A DNA stretch of 56,496 bases from Candidatus Woesearchaeota archaeon. GTDB lineage: Archaea; Nanobdellota; Nanobdellia; Pacearchaeales; GW2011-AR1. Below, one piece after another: positions 1,296 to 9,752 of the stretch. Numbering within the stretch: the first letter of the stretch is position 1; every line of letters begins with the position of its first letter. The notes below the pieces were generated by a model. It had not been told where the DNA came from, made no database searches, and was given only the letters and a program-made list of their open reading frames with translations. The position numbers and the translations under genes were made by a program. Where the stretch lies: contig CAYRXU010000004.1 of assembly GCA_964428325.1 (NCBI GenBank), forward strand, positions 1-56,496, given 5' to 3'.

Positions 1296-4200
1296 TTATT
1301 TCTCAGCCCAATCTCTAGCAACGAGCTCTGCTTGCTTCAAGACCAATTCTGTGGCTTTCTGTTGCTTGTCTGGAGGATATCCATATTTTCTTAAAATTCT
1401 CTTAACAAGTAATCGCAAATTTGCTTGTATGTTTTCTCGCAACGTCCAGTCAATCGTAACATTTCTTCGTATTGCTTCTGTCAACTCAACAGCAATCTTT
1501 CGTAACGTATCATCGCCAAGCACCTTAACTGCACTATCATTTACTTCAAGTGCATCATAGAATGCAATTTCGTCCTCACTCAAATCAAGCTCACTACCCC
1601 GATTCTTTTCTTCCTTGACTTTCTTAGCTAATTCAATTAGTTCTTCTATAACTTGTGCAGCTTCAATACTCTTATTCGTATATTTTTTAATGGTTTTATC
1701 TAACAAATCCATAAAGGACTTTCCTTGAACAAGATTTTTCTTCATCATGATTCTAATCTCGTCATTAAGTAATTTCTTGAGCGTTTCAAATGCAAGGTTT
1801 TTTTGAGGCATCTCTTTAACTTCCGCTAAGAATCCTTCAGACAGAATTGAAATGTCGGGCTTTTTGATACCTGCTGCTGCAAAAATGTCCACAATCCGAT
1901 CGGAAACAATAGCCTTAGACAAGATTTGCTTGATAGCAGAGTCTATACTTTCTTTATCAAATAGTTTAGTTATCGTATTCTTAGAGAGTGCAGCTTTTAT
2001 TGCTTGGAAAAGTCCAACCTCTTCTTTAATCTTCATTGCCCTATCATGAGGAACTGCAAGAGAAAATGCCTTGAGAAGAGCAGTCGTTTCTTTGATGTAT
2101 CGCTCTTTACCGTCTTTTTGTTTTAAGATATGTTCCATTGCGTTTGGCAAGAACGAGATTCTCTCTTTCGGACTCAATCTAAAGAATTTCTTGTAATCTA
2201 ATCCGTGAAACATGGAACTAACAACTTCATACTTTTCTAGCATTAATTCGACGGCCTTATCCTGATCAAACGTAGGCTTGCCCTTGCCCCCGCTTTCAGT
2301 ATAATCCATTAGAGCCTTCTTGAGATCAACCCCTATGCCCATGTAATCAACAATCAATCCTCCTTCTTTGTCCTTGAAAACTCGATTAACACGCGCAATT
2401 GCCTGCATGAGGCTATGTCCCTTCATAGCTTTGTCAACATACATTGTATGCAGAACAGGAGCATCAAAACCCGTAAGCCACATATCGCGCACAAGTACGA
2501 GTTTAAGCGGATGATGTTGGTCTTTAAGGTTCTCGCCTATATGTTGTCGACGTGACTTATTGCGTATGTGTTCCTGCCATTCCTTGGGGTCGGAAGCAGA
2601 GCCAGTCATAATAATTTTCACGACACCACTGTCATCGTCCTTACTATACCAGTTGGGACGTAACTTGATAATTTCATTATACAACTCGACACAGATTCTT
2701 CGGCTCATACATACAATGATGCCCTTTCCTTCTAAAACTTCAGTTCTCTTCTCAAAATGGTCGACAATATCCTCTGCAATCTTCTTGATACGCCTCGGAC
2801 TTCCTGCAACCGCCTCTAGACGCGCCCATTTACTCTTGAGTCTCTCCTTACCTTCTTCTCCCTCAGTTATTTCCTCGAACTCTTGGTCAATTTTGGGTCT
2901 TTCTTCAGGTTTAAGCTCTAACTTTGCAAGTCTACTTTCATAATAAATTCTAACTGTTGCTCCATCTTTTACTGCTTGCTCAATATCATAGACGTCCACA
3001 TACTTGCCAAAAACGGCAGGAGTGCTCTTATCAGATTTTTCAATAGGTGTTCCTGTAAATCCGATAAATGACGCTTTGGGCAATCCGTCCCGTAAATACT
3101 TAGCAAACCCATAGGTGATAAGTGCCTTGTCTTTTTTATCGAGTACCTTTGCACTAAACCCGTACTGGCTTCTGTGAGCTTCATCAGCGATAACAACAAT
3201 ATTATCTCGTTCTGAAAGAACAGGATACGTCTCTCGCTCCTCTTCAGGGAAAAACTTTTGGATGGTTGTGAAAATAACGCCTCCTGAAGAAACTCGCAAT
3301 AAGTTTTGAAGTTCCTTTCTCGACTCTGCTTGAACAGGTGTTTGCTTGACTATGTCTCGACAACGACCAAACGTCTCAAATAATTGCCCATCGAGATCGT
3401 TTCTATCTGTGAGTAAAACAACAGTCGGATTGTCCAATTCTCTCACCAGCTTTCCTGTGTAAAAGACCATTGTAAGACTTTTCCCCGAACCTTGTGTATG
3501 CCATACTACTCCTGCTTTCTTATTTCCTTTACGCGCAGCGATAGTAGACTCTAGAGCTTTATTGACTGCATAGTATTGGTGATATGCAGCCACCTTCTTA
3601 TGCGTCTCCTTATCTTTCTCAAAAACAATAAAGTTTCGTATAAGGTCAAGGAATCTTTCCTTATCGCACATTCCCTTAAGGAGGACTTCCATTTCTGTAA
3701 GACTCTTACTGGGTTTTCGACCATCAAGGCTTTTCCATTGCATAAAACGTTCTTTAGCAGAAGTCAATGTGCCCACTCGCGTATCAAGCCCATCGCTTAC
3801 TATCAATAGTTCGTTATAAGTGAAAACGGAGCTAATCTGTTCTTTATACGTTTGTAATTGATTATATGCCGTCCAGATAGTTGCCTCTTCATCCGCAATA
3901 TTCTTTAGTTCAACAAGCACCAAAGGAAGACCATTAACAAACAGGATTACGTCAGGTCTTCGATCTACATTGTTTTCAATTATTGTAAACTGATTAATTG
4001 CAGTAAACTCGTTACGCTCTGGTTTATCGAAATCTACCAGCCAAACCGTATCTCCCACGATTCGTCCGTCTTTTCGATATTCAACCGCCACACCATCTAC
4101 AAGCATTTTGTGGAAACTTTCGTTATTGGCTATAAGCGATTGATTTTCTGCGCGTAGAACCCTCTTTAACGCCTGTTCTTGTGCTTCTGCTGGAATATGA

Positions 4201-4385
4201 GGGTTAATCTTACGTATCGCTTCCCTCAAACGATCAACGAGAACAACATCTCCATAGCTCTTTCGTTCATTATTGCCGTCTGGAGCAGGCGCAATGTCAG
4301 GGCCATATTCTATTTTCCAATCAATTTCTTCAAGAATTTGAAGAAGAGCATCTTCAACGTGTGACTCTGTTATTATCTTTCTCAT
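1296..4385 (-). CDS. hsdR: Type I restriction enzyme R subunit
   Basis: Nuclease motif [18 protein letters not shown], Walker [13 protein letters not shown] box, [16 protein letters not shown]; 1029 aa. Confidence 0.97.
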
Positions 4386-4411: not shown

Positions 4412-5584
4412 TTAAGGTTGTGTTTTCTGACTGTCAGAACTTTCTTTCTTATGTTGAAAATCGTAATTTCTAGTGGTTATCTTCTCAACAAGTTTAACAG
4501 CTTCTATTATGAGTTTCCTTGCTTTCTCCTTATCAATGTCTGGTTTCATGATGCTTCTTAGAGCAGGCAAATTTTCAGCAGTCAGATAAGTTGGTTTGGG
4601 AGGGTGTTCGCCTTTCAGCGAAATCATGTAGGCAGGAACGACTACCTCGGGAATTATTTTGTGGAGATTAGAATGAACATAGTTGTTTCTTATGAATTCC
4701 CTAAGTTCTTGAAGGTATTTTTTCTCTTGATCACCAATAAATCCTTGCGAATGACAATCGTTTATTAAATTCTCTAGCTCTGCTTCATAGTGCTCTTTCT
4801 TTTTATAGAACCATATTTCTTTCAAAAAAGACTCTATGAATATAGAGAGCATACAGATAGAAGCATTAAAGTTTCCAAACCAAAAATTACTTATGGTTTC
4901 ATAATATAAGGATTTATTTTCAGCTTCTAAGTGGATTCTATCATTAATTAGAGGTAATTGCCTCATTCTATCTATGATCTCGTCTTTTTTAGCTAAAAAG
5001 GAATTATACATCTTTTCCGCTTCTTCTTTTTTTAAGAAATATTCTTCTTCTTTTATCATTCGTTTGTGCAAATCTTTAGGGGCAGACATTAATTCATCAA
5101 ATTCCTTAATCTGCGCGTTTAAACCCTTTATTTCCTCCGATTCTTCAGAAAATCCCCTCCCAAGCATTTTCTCTTTCTTATACAGAAATCTTTCTCTTTG
5201 TATCGCTAGATTTGAAGCAGAAACAAATTCAGCAGGATTCTGAATCGATTCCACATTAGCACTATTCTTTAAACTACTGAAATACTCAGCAATTTTGTAA
5301 ATATTATTATTTTCATCTTTAAATGATTGGAATAATTTAGATTTCTTTCGAAACTCCAAGAATTCTTTTTGATCAATTATTTTATTTTCATACAGATAGT
5401 CTAAGAGGGTTTGAACATCACATTCATTTTTAATCTCTCGAGCCAAATAGTGATAAAATTCTAGTTTCTGGCCGATCATTATTTTATCGATTATCTCCCC
5501 TATTCCTTTTCTAAATTCGTAGAATTCTTTTTTCAGTTTTTCATAGTCAGAACTTTCTTCATCCATTCGCTCTAATCTCTCCAT
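4412..5584 (-). CDS. Protein with N-terminal helical/coiled-coil region and C-terminal HEPN-like domain
   Basis: C-terminal IESFLKE...RNNYVH (Rx4H); lies between hsdS and hsdR. Confidence 0.6.
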
Positions 5585-6812
5585 TCATTAATTTAGGCAA
5601 AAGCGAATCTCTGATTTTCATTAGAGAATAATTTTCGTAAAAGTTCTTTTCCATTGTTCTTCTAATAGGTTTAATAATCTGATCAAAAGATTCTAAACTT
5701 TTTTTATCTGGTATTAAAACGTTTACCTTCTTTATTCCCTTAACATTAAAACTATCAAAAATAGTTCCTCTGTCTATATTCTTCTCTATTTCGTCTCTTC
5801 CTAATTGAGAATGGAGAAATAGGAGTAAGTAAAAAGGAGAGATGGTAGTTGCCCTTATAGCAGTTATGTTTCTACCTATGCCTGCTTTAAAATTGTAAGG
5901 GGTCTGGGATATGTTCCCAGAGAAACCTGCGTTGTTGATCAATATATCTCCTTCTTCAACTTCTATATTATTTGTCCAAATACTATAATCTTCTTCGCTT
6001 ATAAAATACTTCTTATCTAAATTAAGCAGACCTTTTTGACCCATATTATAAAATTGCAATAGTAATTTTCCCCCTTCTTTTTCTTCTGGCTTTTTAGTAT
6101 GTAAACAATCAATCACTCTTGCAATTTCAGGTAATTTTTTAATCTCCCAAGTATCTTTTCGTTCATCGATAAACCATTTCTTAAAAAACGCCTGCCCAAT
6201 ATTTTCAAGCGTTCTATTCATTTGATTGTTGAGTTCTATTTTATCCTGAATTATCTTGTAAAATTTACCTATTTCTTGCTGTTCTTTAATTTTTGGCAAT
6301 GGGATAATAAAAGACTTCATTTTCCCCCCATCAATAGCTCTTCTAGATGACCCAGAATTAAATGATCCAATATAATTTTTAGTTTGAGGCAAGATAAGAT
6401 ATGCATTCAGAAACCAAGGAGATAGTCTTTCTTTATTACATCTGATACAACCAACTGAACGAGTGATCACTGCGGGCAACATGTCCTTTGGAACTATACA
6501 TGATCTTGCAAAAGTTATGCCATCCCCAAGCTGATTTAATAAAACATCTTCCTCTTCCAATTCAGCAGATTTTAATTCTAGATATTGTTCTTTAGAGATG
6601 TATCCCACTTTTGACTTATCAAGATAGCCATCAAAAACAGGAGCACTCTGAATAATGCGAAACGCCGTAAGTTTATTAGAATGGCTTTGTTTTCCTCCTT
6701 TAGGGTCTCTTCCGCAAAATATTTTTTTGACACTACTTCCTAACTTGGTTATTTCCCAATCTTCTGGAATCTTTCCTATTTCAGTTTGTTTGAACTTGGT
6801 TTGTTGCTTCAT
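5559..6812 (-). CDS. hsdS: Type I R-M specificity subunit
   Basis: IGKIPEDWEITKLG start, central IPLPKIKEQQEI...WEIKKL conserved repeat, terminal [12 protein letters not shown]; ATG at 6812 (ORF track starts at 6821). Confidence 0.95.
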   Translation of the reverse strand: MKQQTKFKQTEIGKIPEDWEITKLGSSVKKIFCGRDPKGGKQSHSNKLTAFRIIQSAPVFDGYLDKSKVGYISKEQYLELKSAELEEEDVLLNQLGDGITFARSCIVPKDMLPAVITRSVGCIRCNKERLSPWFLNAYLILPQTKNYIGSFNSGSSRRAIDGGKMKSFIIPLPKIKEQQEIGKFYKIIQDKIELNNQMNRTLENIGQAFFKKWFIDERKDTWEIKKLPEIARVIDCLHTKKPEEKEGGKLLLQFYNMGQKGLLNLDKKYFISEEDYSIWTNNIEVEEGDILINNAGFSGNISQTPYNFKAGIGRNITAIRATTISPFYLLLFLHSQLGRDEIEKNIDRGTIFDSFNVKGIKKVNVLIPDKKSLESFDQIIKPIRRTMEKNFYENYSLMKIRDSLLPKLMNGEIRANG

Positions 6813-7311
6813 TATTAACAATCTCCTGAACAGCTTGTTTTGGTGTTAAAACCTTAAAATTAGGAATGGTTTGTTCCAAAATCGTAAAATCTTTCAAGTT
6901 CCATGTAACAAAGCAGTCTATTTGATTTTCTACTATCGCCTGACATTGAATTGCATCTCCAGATTTTTCATTGAATTTTATCGCCGTTTCTATAAAATTG
7001 TCTATTAATTCTCTAGAAAAAGCTTGCGGGCTAATTTGTTTCTTTGATGAAGAAAAAGGGAGAGGATTTATTGTTTTTCTCCAAGATTTAGTTATTCTAT
7101 ATAGCAAAGAATAGGCTTTATCTTTGTCTTTAGTTCTTCTTATCATGGCAGAAGCCAATTCCAGAAAGGTAAAGATAGAAGTAAAAAAAGACACCTTCTT
7201 TGATTTACAGGTCAATACGTAATCCATAAATTCTTTCGATTCTTTATGGTTAGCTTCGCCTTCAATTTCAGAAGCTACGATGACGTCAGAATCAATGGCT
7301 ATATTTTTCAT
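6781..7311 (-). CDS. PIN-domain (VapC-like) ribonuclease
   Basis: IAIDSD, TFLELA, SGDAI and FVTWNLKDF acidic motifs; probable ATG at 7311. Confidence 0.8.
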   Translation of the reverse strand: MKNIAIDSDVIVASEIEGEANHKESKEFMDYVLTCKSKKVSFFTSIFTFLELASAMIRRTKDKDKAYSLLYRITKSWRKTINPLPFSSSKKQISPQAFSRELIDNFIETAIKFNEKSGDAIQCQAIVENQIDCFVTWNLKDFTILEQTIPNFKVLTPKQAVQEIVNNEATNQVQTN

Positions 7312-7312
7312 T

Positions 7313-7456
7313 TTAATAGTAGTCGCTCCAGAAAGATACCCTTCGCCTCCTTCTAGAAGGAACTTTAGCCACAAACGAAACTTTTCTTCCTCTAGCCCTA
7401 AACGAAACTCTTTTCCTTACTCTGCCTCTCGCTAAAAAACTAATTCTTCTTGCCAT
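7313..7456 (-). CDS. 47-aa Arg-rich peptide MARRISFLARGRVRKRVSFRARGRKVSFVAKVPSRRRRRVSFWSDYY (absent from the ORF track)
   Basis: Translated by hand; GAGGTAGG Shine-Dalgarno before the ATG, overlaps the upstream stop and ends 1 nt before the PIN ATG; internal repeats. Confidence 0.75.
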   Translation of the reverse strand: MARRISFLARGRVRKRVSFRARGRKVSFVAKVPSRRRRRVSFWSDYY

Positions 7457-8024
7457 CGCCTACCTCGTTATTTTTCTCTTGAGATTCTTTTAGTTTATTC
7501 TCAAAATCCTTAAAAACTGGTCCAAAATCCCTTTGAATTAGAGTGCTAAGTCTCACATATTCCAAGAGACTCTTAATCAATAGTTTGATTGAATTATTGC
7601 ATAAATCAAAATACTCTTTCAGATTTATCTCATTAACTTTTTCTATATCAACTATCAGACGATGAAGAATAAGATTTCGTTTAGAGTTTAATTTCTTCAA
7701 ATCGTTATATAACTCTAAGTCAATTATACAATTAAAGTGAAGTAATGACAAACTTTCCATGAATCTAAGTCTTTTTATATAATCTTTATAGTCGTTGCTT
7801 ATTATTGACCTGCTTAAATTTATTTTTGAATTTAACAAAATATAAACGAAAGATTTCATAAGTTCGTCTATGAATACATGAGAATAAGATATCCAGTGAA
7901 AATGAAACTTATTATTATAAGCCTCGTTTAGGTCTTTCTCTAAATCGTAGGAATTAATTAATTGGCTAAAGGGCTCATCGTTATCTTCGTGGTTATCCAT
8001 TCCAACACTCCTTAGTTTCCTCAA
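7440..8024 (-). CDS. HEPN-like protein
   Basis: KRNLILH (Rx4H) in a helical 194-aa protein; coupled within the hsd operon. Confidence 0.55.
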   Translation of the reverse strand: MRKLRSVGMDNHEDNDEPFSQLINSYDLEKDLNEAYNNKFHFHWISYSHVFIDELMKSFVYILLNSKINLSRSIISNDYKDYIKRLRFMESLSLLHFNCIIDLELYNDLKKLNSKRNLILHRLIVDIEKVNEINLKEYFDLCNNSIKLLIKSLLEYVRLSTLIQRDFGPVFKDFENKLKESQEKNNEVGDGKKN

Positions 8025-8232
8025 TTAGTTTCATAATTCCGAAATAAATATAAAAAATAAGACAAATTATTAAAACAAATCCGATAAATATTTGATAACC
8101 TGTAGTCGCAGTATCAAAAGTATGTTGTATCGCTGCCCCAAATAAGATCTCGAAAAGAGTCGGCACTCCCACAATTACAAAAATCCAAGCAATCAAAAGC
8201 TTAAACCAATTGTCACACACTATAGTTTCCAC
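7993..8232 (-). CDS. Small two-TM membrane protein
   Basis: Two hydrophobic stretches; overlaps the hsdM stop. Confidence 0.6.
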
Positions 8233-9752
8233 CCTAAACCAGCAAGGTTCTTTCTAATTTCAGCTTCGAGTCTATCGCTCTCCTTAAACTGCTCAGCGAG
8301 CTCTGATGTGAGACGTTTCATTTTTTCATCAAATGGCTCGCTATCCTCTTCTACCTCAGCAGTTCCCACATAACGGCCAGGAGTTAGGGTATGTTCATGT
8401 TTACGAATCTCTTCGAGGCTTGCCGATTTACAGAATCCTGCAATATCTTCGTACTTCTTGTCTTTCTGCTCTCCGCGCCAAATATGATATATATCTGCGA
8501 TTTTCTTTACATCCTCGCTTGTTAGTTCCTTATGGCGACGATCAATCATAGCCCCCAGGTTTCTCGCATCGATGAAGAGAACATTCCCCCCCCTATTTCT
8601 AAAATTATGATCTCTTTTATCGCGTGTTACGAACCATAAACAGCAGGGAATCATCGTATTATAGAAAAGCTGTGAAGGTAAAGCAACCATACAGTCAACA
8701 AGATCAGCTTCTACGAGATTCTTTCTAATTTCTCCCTCCCCAGAAGTATTAGATGACATAGAACCATTTGCAAGCACAAATCCTGCGGTGCCTGTTGGTG
8801 AAAGATGATGGATGAAGTGTTGCACCCAACCGAAGTTTGCGTTTCCTAAGGGAGGAGCACCATATTTCCATCTAACATCATCACGTAACAGTTCGCCCTT
8901 CCAATCACTATCATTGAAAGGAGGGTTTGCAATCACGAAGTCTGCTTTGAGGTCTTTATGTAGATCATTATGGAAACTGTCTCCCCATTGAATATTGGCA
9001 TCAATGCCTCTAATAGCCATGTTCATTTTAGCGAGTCGCCAAGTGGTCTGATTTGACTCTTGTCCAAATACGGAAATGTCTCCTAGTCTCCCTCCATGAG
9101 CTGCAATGAACTTCTCGCTCTGCACAAACATACCGCCAGAACCGCAGCACGGGTCGTAGATTCTGCCCTTATACGGTTCAAGCATTTCTACAAGCAACGC
9201 AACGATACTTCGAGGCGTGTAAAACTGTCCTCCTTTCTTACCTTCTGCATCTGCGAACTGTCCTAGAAAGTATTCATATACACGACCGAGAATATCTTTA
9301 CTCTTGCTTTCTTTATCGCCTAAACCAATGGTTCCGATAAGATCAATAAGTTCTCCTAAACGCTGTTTGTCAAGTGAAGGTCGTGCATAGTCTTTTGCAA
9401 GAACGCCTTTTAACGAAGGGTTGTCTTTTTCTATTGCTTCCATAGCATCATCAAGCAACTTTCCTACGGTCGGTTGTTTTGCATTCTTTTGAAGAAATTC
9501 CCAACGTGCTTTTTGTGGAACCCAGAACGTATTCCTAGCGCGATATTCATCTCTATCTTCTGCATCGGCCAATTTGTCTTTTTTTAATTCGTTGTACACT
9601 TCAATAAACGAATCAGAGATATACTTGAGAAAGATAAGACCTAATACAATATGCTTGTATTCGGCAGCATCCATATTATTTCTCATCTTATCGGCTGCCT
9701 GCCATAACTTCTGCTCAAATCCAAGATTGGCTCCGCTAGATAGTTTCGTCAT
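8220..9752 (-). CDS. hsdM: Type I R-M N6-adenine methyltransferase
   Basis: DPCCGSGG motif I, NPPFN motif IV, GQFYTP. Confidence 0.97.

Follow-up and report, generated by a model that had tools for sequence, protein, structure and literature searches.

A 47-amino-acid (aa) open reading frame (ORF) on the minus strand of contig CAYRXU010000004.1 of a Candidatus Woesearchaeota archaeon (GCA_964428325.1; the whole stretch of 56,496 nucleotides (nt) was analysed and is called the window here) directly precedes a gene for a protein with a VapC-like PIN domain. Judged by its codons, this ORF is a protein-coding gene under purifying selection, and its product, an extremely basic mini-protein, accompanies the PIN protein as part of a rare two-gene module. 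PIN-domain nucleases constitute the largest prokaryotic toxin family, and the cassette resembles a PIN toxin-antitoxin module with a new class of small partner that appears not to have been catalogued before. We estimate a probability of about one half that the peptide is a minimal VapB-like antitoxin of the PIN nuclease that does without a DNA-binding domain.

Sequence and translation signals of the mini-ORF

The minus-strand ORF at 7313-7456 encodes MARRISFLARGRVRKRVSFRARGRKVSFVAKVPSRRRRRVSFWSDYY, a peptide with 14 arginines, three lysines, one aspartate and no glutamate, giving a net charge of +16. The translation matches exactly the one given in an original prediction that had been made from the sequence of the window alone. 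All four of the [RK][RK][IV]SF repeats claimed there were found as well (RRISF at residues 3-7, KRVSF at 15-19, RKVSF at 24-28 and RRVSF at 38-42), irregularly spaced by 12, 9 and 14 residues. Chance does not readily produce such a series: among 200,000 composition-preserving shuffles of the peptide none reached three or more motifs and seven contained two. Counted over all six frames, the 56-kb window contains the motif five times, and four of these occurrences fall inside the peptide ORF. The direct repeats of about 20 bp described earlier are real yet modest and consist of one 23-nt pair with 83% identity that codes for motifs 2 and 3; Tandem Repeats Finder reports a period of 27 with 2.0 copies at 7366-7417 on the peptide DNA.

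The predicted Shine-Dalgarno site is present as GAGGT, and the suggested coupling to both neighbours holds, since the ATG of the peptide lies 17 nt within the 3' end of the upstream 194-aa gene (its stop is at 7440) and the TAA stop (7313-7315) is one base away from the ATG of the downstream 176-aa gene (7311). The statement that the peptide is unannotated applies to the ORF track used for that prediction only, as homologues in public records of metagenome-assembled genomes (MAGs) have been called as hypothetical proteins. The window's own genome carries a single copy of the peptide.

Conservation of the peptide gene

A word-indexed search of 5.8 billion proteins with the peptide returned four homologues of 45-53 aa with 63-74% identity, the nearest of which belong to Pacearchaeota/Nanoarchaeota MAGs (we use the taxon labels given by the depositors of the MAGs). 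The window's genome is accordingly of the DPANN type. We gathered a set of loci with the downstream PIN protein alone as query, so that this sample is unbiased regarding the peptide. It comprises 33 loci, 10 from genomes and 23 from metagenomes, and the peptide ORF lies directly upstream of the PIN gene in 32 of them, i.e. in all 32 that are testable; the remaining locus L037 offers just 59 nt of upstream sequence and was left out of the peptide count. The PIN homologue of L037 (60-540) matches as two pieces in different frames (60-284 and 340-540) and could be a frameshifted pseudogene or an assembly error. The junctions between peptide and PIN genes in the 32 loci are either ATGA overlaps or gaps of 1-16 nt, mostly of 1-4 nt. 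A ribosome-binding site of the GGTG/AGGTG type precedes the peptide in most homologous loci, and in the loci compared the PIN ATG has no obvious Shine-Dalgarno sequence of its own.

Codon-level evidence was obtained from 31 distinct 38-codon peptide cores. The original prediction had named as decisive against the gene that no homologue keeps the frame open; we found the frame open in 31 of 31 distinct copies, with conserved ATG, ribosome-binding site and stop. The invariant residues are each encoded by two to four synonymous codons, for example TTC (17) and TTT (14) for Phe7, four TCN codons for Ser27 and three codons for Pro33. Median NG86 values were 0.19 for nonsynonymous (dN) and 1.46 for synonymous (dS) divergence, with a dN/dS of 0.13. 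Thirteen residues are invariant, and the same four-motif architecture is kept across archaea and bacteria. We conclude that the ORF is coding because of the universally open frame, the synonymous codon variation and the low dN/dS.

A chance ORF, an antisense by-product or a repeat element acting as RNA or DNA, e.g. a type III antitoxin RNA, would be rival explanations. The DNA does contain a 27-nt periodic repeat, and an antisense 51-aa ORF (window 7280-7435, plus strand) is open in 27 of 31 homologues. However, the sense frame is open in all of them and has the lower dN/dS (0.13 vs 0.22 in the antisense frame), the motif spacing is irregular and no shuffle reached the motif count. The openness of the antisense frame is explained by the richness of the sense gene in AGA, AAA, TTY and GTT codons and does not indicate a second gene. 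Codon-level conservation thus refutes these explanations, which have practically no chance of being correct. Type III toxin-antitoxin systems specifically are characterized by non-coding tandem RNA repeats upstream of the toxin, whereas here we found selection at the protein level and a lone 23-nt repeat pair.

The downstream PIN-domain protein

The window's 176-aa protein has no match in Pfam even at an E-value of 10. Its AlphaFold2 model (pLDDT 81.9, pTM 0.78) is matched by Foldseek in the PDB to VapC toxins and archaeal PIN proteins with a probability of 1.00, E-values of 1e-5 to 1e-3 and TM-scores, normalised to the target, of 0.64-0.77; the matches include 5x3t_B, 7vwo_A, VapC20 (5wz4_A), PAE0151 (2fe1) and PAE2754 (1v8o). 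In an alignment of 27 family members D7, E15, E19, E51, D104, D119, D132 and N138 are invariant. The D/E/D/D-N acidic set of PIN nucleases would correspond to D7, E51, D119, D132 and N138, an assignment made from the order of the residues and their motif context (IDSDV, FLEL, SGD, TWN) without superposition. The family comprises at least 194 clusters at 90% identity with names such as 'hypothetical', 'predicted nucleic acid-binding protein' and 'PIN domain-containing protein', and precomputed PF01850 annotations are present on several of them. The 50%-identical member from locus L023 scores 29.7 bits on PF01850 (cut-off 23.6). A profile of the family searched against PDB sequences gave only a chance match to eS25 (E 0.04). 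Structure prediction and alignment together argue that the protein is a VapC-like PIN domain, with the alpha/beta/alpha sandwich of this fold, whose catalytic residues are under selection. Of the original label 'PIN toxin', the PIN fold is therefore supported by AlphaFold2, Foldseek and PF01850 in family members, whereas the window's protein itself remains without a Pfam match. Overall, the PIN partners are neutral to basic with a median isoelectric point (pI) of 8.9.

The fifth [RK][RK][IV]SF match of the window, KKVSF at 7186-7200 on the minus strand, lies within the PIN protein (residues 38-42), where it falls in the predicted second strand immediately preceding FTSIFTFLEL. Several PIN homologues (L011:256-837, L012:4992-5573, L024:4038-4619, L026:5001-5582 and L034:179-748) carry a C-terminal extension of about 30 aa that ends in an RNxxVH-type motif (e.g. 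LIRERNRIVHNKS). This motif resembles the Rx4-6H signature of HEPN RNases, and the L012 protein has a weak HEPN_RiboL-PSP match (E 0.012). A different C-terminal extension of about 60 aa (…KLSGLVSKEGATQIIASEVGLKLK) is found in two homologues embedded in restriction-modification (R-M) operons (L008:5001-5684 and L018:4570-5259); it matches DUF2240 weakly, and PF09999 is precomputed for the protein P0107.

Peptide family and predicted structure

Peptides of the family are 42-53 residues long, with net charges between +13 and +23. When 1.84 billion representative proteins were searched with a profile, 49 clusters reached E <=1e-3; nearly all of them measure 36-66 aa and repeat a [RK][RK]V[ST]FxA[RK] unit three to five times. 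The four distant members whose contexts were readable are found in varied company. P0048 is ATGA-coupled to a 202-aa PIN protein of a different subfamily (PF01850), P0033 and P0024 lie upstream of HNH endonucleases, and the coupled partner of P0023 is acidic and has two transmembrane helices; the 558-nt contig of a fifth, P0012, provides no informative context, and in P0037 the repeat region is fused to a membrane segment. The two HNH cases and the one with the acidic partner are at L050:258-717, L055:810-1364 and L057:1055-1842. Gaps of 22 and 48 nt to the next gene occur among these related peptides. The HNH partners are extremely basic, the full-length one having a net charge of +35. Since the profile is of low complexity (the HNH-linked peptides were assigned with E-values of 7e-8 to 3e-6) and the cases are few, we weight these distant links lightly. 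The RVSF mini-protein may pair promiscuously with effectors of several types.

Searches of the peptide and its neighbours against Pfam (E up to 10), NCBIfam and PADLOC (E up to 1) gave no match for the peptide, and none of 28 family peptides matched PHROGs. We found no description of the peptide family in the literature, although our coverage was incomplete and its undescribed status is therefore unproven. AlphaFold2, using 28 sequences, predicts one long beta-hairpin with strands at 3-21 and 24-44 and a turn at R22-G23 (pLDDT 89, pTM 0.42); Foldseek searches with this hairpin returned only generic long hairpins (E >0.6) and were uninformative. The alignment, which is independent of the model, shows hydrophobic residues in 89-100% of sequences at positions 5, 7, 9, 13, 17, 19, 26, 28, 30, 32, 40 and 42 and mostly Arg, Lys or Ser at the positions between them. 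Based on this alternation and the modelled hairpin, the peptide is predicted to be an amphipathic beta-ribbon with a hydrophobic face and an extremely basic Arg/Lys/Ser face. Its net charge and the conserved Arg/Lys/Ser face of the model make it a plausible nucleic-acid binder, one of the roles offered in the original prediction.

Distribution and mobility

Among 401 sampled genomes of the phylum the PIN gene was present in three, each time together with the peptide, and a scan of viral contigs with the PIN profile returned no relatives. Close relatives with at least 67% identity reside within type I R-M operons. A core of hsdM, peptide, PIN and hsdS separated by gaps of few nucleotides is found in L002/L007, L009, L017 and L018; L004 has the same arrangement from hsdM to hsdS plus additional genes, and in L020 the PIN gene overlaps hsdS. 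Relatives of about 50% identity are stand-alone pairs in unrelated neighbourhoods: after AMMECR1 (L040, whose 258-kb contig includes bL21, bL27 and bL31), after recR (L015), after DUF5677 (L043), after DUF4145 proteins (L005:199-873 and L013:4096-4770), or adjoining an integrase (L006) or a DNA methylase (L012). The neighbouring recR and bacterial ribosomal-protein genes indicate that the pair exists in true bacteria besides archaea. As for L012, its contig (CAZIEE010000018.1) is titled 'uncultured Methanosarcinales archaeon', and the genome G306, with identical peptide and PIN sequences, is classed with the window's genome, which suggests a conflict of labels or binning.

The divergences of peptide and PIN protein are correlated (Mantel r 0.61, reached by none of 2000 permutations), so the two genes travel together. 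On the comparative evidence, the pair behaves as a rare, mobile two-gene module with the patchy, horizontally mobile distribution that is characteristic of VapBC systems. Because the same pair occurs far from R-M genes, the R-M link is a trait of one clade rather than of the cassette itself. A housekeeping chromatin or ribosomal protein would be expected to be nearly universal; the linked PIN gene in 3 of 401 genomes and the 49 peptide clusters in 1.84 billion proteins do not agree with such a role.

Function of the peptide

The original prediction had proposed a partner or an unusual antitoxin of the nuclease. Partnership is well supported by the adjacency in 32 of 32 loci, the correlated divergence and the occurrence of P0048 in front of another PIN subfamily; the peptide may either inhibit or assist the nuclease. 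We prefer the interpretation as a minimal antitoxin because of the type II layout, the rarity and mobility of the pair and the precedent for arginine and aromatic contacts in VapBC complexes. In 32 loci the pair opens with the small gene, which overlaps or abuts the nuclease gene and in most of them is preceded by a ribosome-binding site. In VapBC complexes the antitoxin holds VapC by intercalating aromatic residues, and Arg64 of VapB reaches into the acidic active site (Dienemann et al. 2011, PMC3384007). The RVSF motif places Arg/Lys beside Val and Phe at positions that are about 100% conserved.

If the peptide is such an antitoxin, its gene would be translated first from its ribosome-binding site and the PIN gene would follow through termination-reinitiation. 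The peptide would fold, perhaps only upon binding, into a two-stranded beta-ribbon about 20 residues long, whose conserved Val/Ile/Phe/Ala face could pack against the PIN protein or against a second peptide. At least one of its arginines could then enter the acidic D/E/D/D-N metal site and block the nuclease. Here, as in the closest relatives of this archaeon, the cassette has been inserted between hsdM and hsdS, which would lead to co-expression with the type I R-M system, and within this operon it would probably serve as an addiction or back-up (abortive-infection-like) module. In the R-M-embedded clade, where translation chains the pair to hsdM, autoregulation would not be needed. Direct binding as the means of inhibition, the mode of docking and any role in defence are inferences.

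Several observations weigh against an inhibitory role. Typical antitoxins are acidic or neutral and possess a DNA-binding domain, whereas this peptide has a net charge of +16 and no detected domain of this kind: neither it nor its 28 relatives matched AbrB, ribbon-helix-helix (RHH), Phd/YefM or helix-turn-helix (HTH) families in the libraries, and all 47 aa are predicted to form a single hairpin. The PIN partners are non-acidic overall, with the median pI of 8.9, so that only the active-site cluster offers charge complementarity; we rejected charge complementarity as support for direct binding on these grounds. Distant peptides precede extremely basic HNH endonucleases, for which a shared nucleic-acid ligand fits better than charge-driven inhibition. 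A natural fusion of peptide and PIN protein was sought among long members of the PIN family and none was found, the extra length being C-terminal or an upstream misread of the gene caller. Finally, the hairpin is a monomer prediction of a 47-aa peptide with a pTM of 0.42.

The first three of these observations strengthen the main alternative, namely that the peptide is a positive partner that acts in trans as a nucleic-acid-binding arm, its hydrophobic face holding the PIN (or HNH) protein and its basic face clamping RNA or DNA, which would lend the nuclease affinity for its substrate or direct it, e.g. to rRNA or tRNA. The pair would then be a two-subunit nuclease rather than toxin plus antidote. 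Single-domain PIN proteins are not known to have a separate RNA-binding module (PMC5499597), and an extremely charged peptide (+13 to +23 in 42-53 residues) with conserved alternation and a predicted long beta-ribbon, neutral to basic PIN partners and very basic HNH partners would all suit such an arm. Nevertheless, the order of the two genes, a strong ribosome-binding site ahead of the small one and a nuclease that depends on reinitiation reproduce the classic antitoxin-toxin layout. A constitutive targeted nuclease would also need another safeguard, and none is conserved adjacent to the pair in the loci read; the family membership of the HNH-linked peptides, moreover, rests on a low-complexity profile. 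We therefore regard the arm as a serious but doubtful possibility. A broader and rather improbable reading would see the RVSF mini-proteins as an unrecognised class of amphipathic beta-ribbon adaptors for two PIN subfamilies, HNH nucleases and membrane proteins that sense or bind nucleic acids instead of sequestering a toxin; in this archaeal clade, translational coupling would tie the adaptor-PIN pair to the genes of the type I methyltransferase, and the pair would act as a back-up nuclease similar to PrrC.

Other explanations fit the data less well. The tight junctions (mostly ATGA or 1-4 nt) and the lack of an obvious Shine-Dalgarno sequence in front of the PIN gene would agree with a translated leader, in which translation itself feeds ribosomes to the PIN start and the product has no function. 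A functionless product would hardly keep 13 invariant residues and the four-motif architecture while synonymous sites are saturated (dS of about 1.5, dN/dS 0.13), and the related peptides with 22- and 48-nt gaps do not fit either, making a mere leader very unlikely. Roles could also be reversed, with a cationic peptide that is toxic by condensing nucleic acids or acting on membranes and a PIN RNase that limits it, for instance by mRNA cleavage as in type V GhoST-like systems. Highly cationic amphipathic peptides are frequently toxic, and P0037 is fused to a membrane region and P0023 precedes a protein with two transmembrane helices. Cleavage of the single coupled transcript would, however, destroy the PIN message too, the peptide has no hydrophobic helix, and the PIN fold and catalytic residues match those of VapC toxins, which leaves this reversal slight odds. 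A phosphorylation switch at the serines of the RRxS/RVSF motifs, releasing or engaging the nuclease, had also been suggested in the original prediction. Eukaryotic AGC kinases, whose consensus is RRxS, are not known in these archaea. Among the motif serines, Ser6 and Ser27 never vary and Ser18 hardly does, but the serine of the fourth motif is replaced by T, E, K, D, M, Y, I or A in relatives, and a serine would equally fit as a small polar residue on the basic strand face. The genome holds two Pkinase-like genes, nothing specific to this locus, and no kinase or phosphatase is linked to the pair in any locus read. By eye, the repeats match both the PP1-docking RVxF pattern and the RRxS pattern of basophilic kinases. 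Phosphorylation of VapB is reported to regulate VapC in M. tuberculosis (PMC11160731), yet for the present peptide we consider a switch of this kind extremely doubtful.

Comparison with known systems

With VapBC systems such as those of Shigella flexneri, FitAB of Neisseria and the pairs of M. tuberculosis the cassette shares a bicistronic organization in which the small gene leads and overlaps or abuts its neighbour, a single-domain PIN protein with the D/E/D/D-N set and a VapC-like fold as second gene, and a sporadic, mobile occurrence. VapB antitoxins combine aromatic anchors with an arginine that enters the active site (PMC3384007), and both kinds of side chain are available in the RVSF motifs. 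In contrast to VapB, the partner described here has only 42-53 aa, contains no AbrB, RHH, Phd or HTH domain, shows no detected similarity to VapB families, is charged +13 to +23 and is predicted to be an all-beta hairpin instead of providing an extended helical tail.

PIN genes coupled to type I R-M subunits have been reported before, in some cases with 'antitoxin elements missing' (Matelska et al. 2017, PMC5499597). Those loci likewise carry the PIN gene among passenger genes inside an hsdM/hsdS/hsdR operon, but here a conserved mini-ORF occupies the antitoxin position. The peptide may thus be such an overlooked antitoxin element, as a 47-aa ORF is easily missed. A further parallel is found in the anticodon nucleases PrrC and RloC, where the gene for a latent RNase lies inside a type I hsd operon and where a back-up suicide function tied to the R-M complex might be suggested by analogy. 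The embedding of the nuclease gene in such an operon is found here too, though it is not universal. PrrC and RloC combine HEPN with an ABC-ATPase, whereas our cassette has a PIN domain and a dedicated small partner and is autonomous elsewhere. Small basic proteins such as protamines, bL34, eL41 and the beta-ribbon arms of HU/IHF resemble the peptide in size, extreme Arg/Lys content and likely binding to the phosphate backbone. They differ from it in that the peptide is tied to a nuclease gene, has an amphipathic beta pattern with invariant Val, Ser and Phe, and matches none of them in sequence or fold.

Many 'orphan' PIN genes, including those embedded in R-M operons, have been reported without an antitoxin. 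Our data suggest that a PIN family of about 200 clusters has an obligate partner of 42-53 residues that was overlooked by gene callers and domain libraries alike, and that other nuclease genes described as 'antitoxin-less' deserve a second look for mini-ORFs. In its chemistry, the extremely basic, predicted all-beta ribbon is the reverse of a textbook antitoxin. Should the peptide neutralise the nuclease, it would define a new minimal type of antitoxin and offer a very small scaffold for inhibiting PIN RNases; should it guide the nuclease to nucleic acid instead, it would be a substrate-binding subunit of a new kind that acts in trans. In both cases the pair provides a testable two-gene system from the poorly understood DPANN archaea.

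The operon in this archaeon

The genome that contains the window is 0.70 Mb in size (19 contigs, 87% complete). From 9752 to 1296 every gene is encoded by the minus strand, and the listed ORFs abut or overlap one another in the order hsdM, 79-aa gene, 194-aa gene, peptide, PIN, hsdS, DUF4145-like gene and hsdR (Table 1). By its gene content this locus is a type I restriction-modification operon that carries five passenger genes.

Table 1. Coordinates of the peptide gene, its signals and the surrounding operon in the window
Feature	Position	Strand	Description
hsdM, type I R-M methyltransferase subunit	8220..9752	minus	PF02384 (E 1e-111), PF12161 (E 1e-26)
79-aa predicted membrane protein	7993..8232	minus	Hydrophobic sequence; weak library matches only
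194-aa passenger gene	7440..8024	minus	KRNLILH, an Rx4H-like motif; no match in Pfam, PADLOC or NCBIfam
Shine-Dalgarno-like GAGGT	7462..7466	minus	5 nt ahead of the peptide ATG; read from the sequence
Peptide gene	7313..7456	minus	Extremely basic mini-protein of 47 aa; contains [RK][RK][IV]SF four times; a long, amphipathic beta-hairpin is predicted
Direct-repeat pair	7363..7412	n/a	23-nt copies at 7363-7385 and 7390-7412, 83% identical, 27 nt (9 codons) apart
PIN partner gene	6781..7311	minus	176-aa VapC-like PIN-domain protein, conserved downstream partner; from AlphaFold2, Foldseek and family alignment
hsdS, type I R-M specificity subunit	5559..6821	minus	PF01420 (E 5e-14); from its first TTG start it overlaps the 3' end of the PIN gene
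390-aa protein	4412..5584	minus	Weak DUF4145 match (PF13643, E 1.3e-4, 22.4 bits, below the cut-off of 23.1)
hsdR, type I R-M restriction subunit	1296..4385	minus	PF04313, PF18766, PF11867

DUF4145 recurs around the cassette, directly upstream of the pair in two stand-alone loci and as the weak match between hsdS and hsdR of the window, which points to a recurrent association at the level of gene neighbourhoods.

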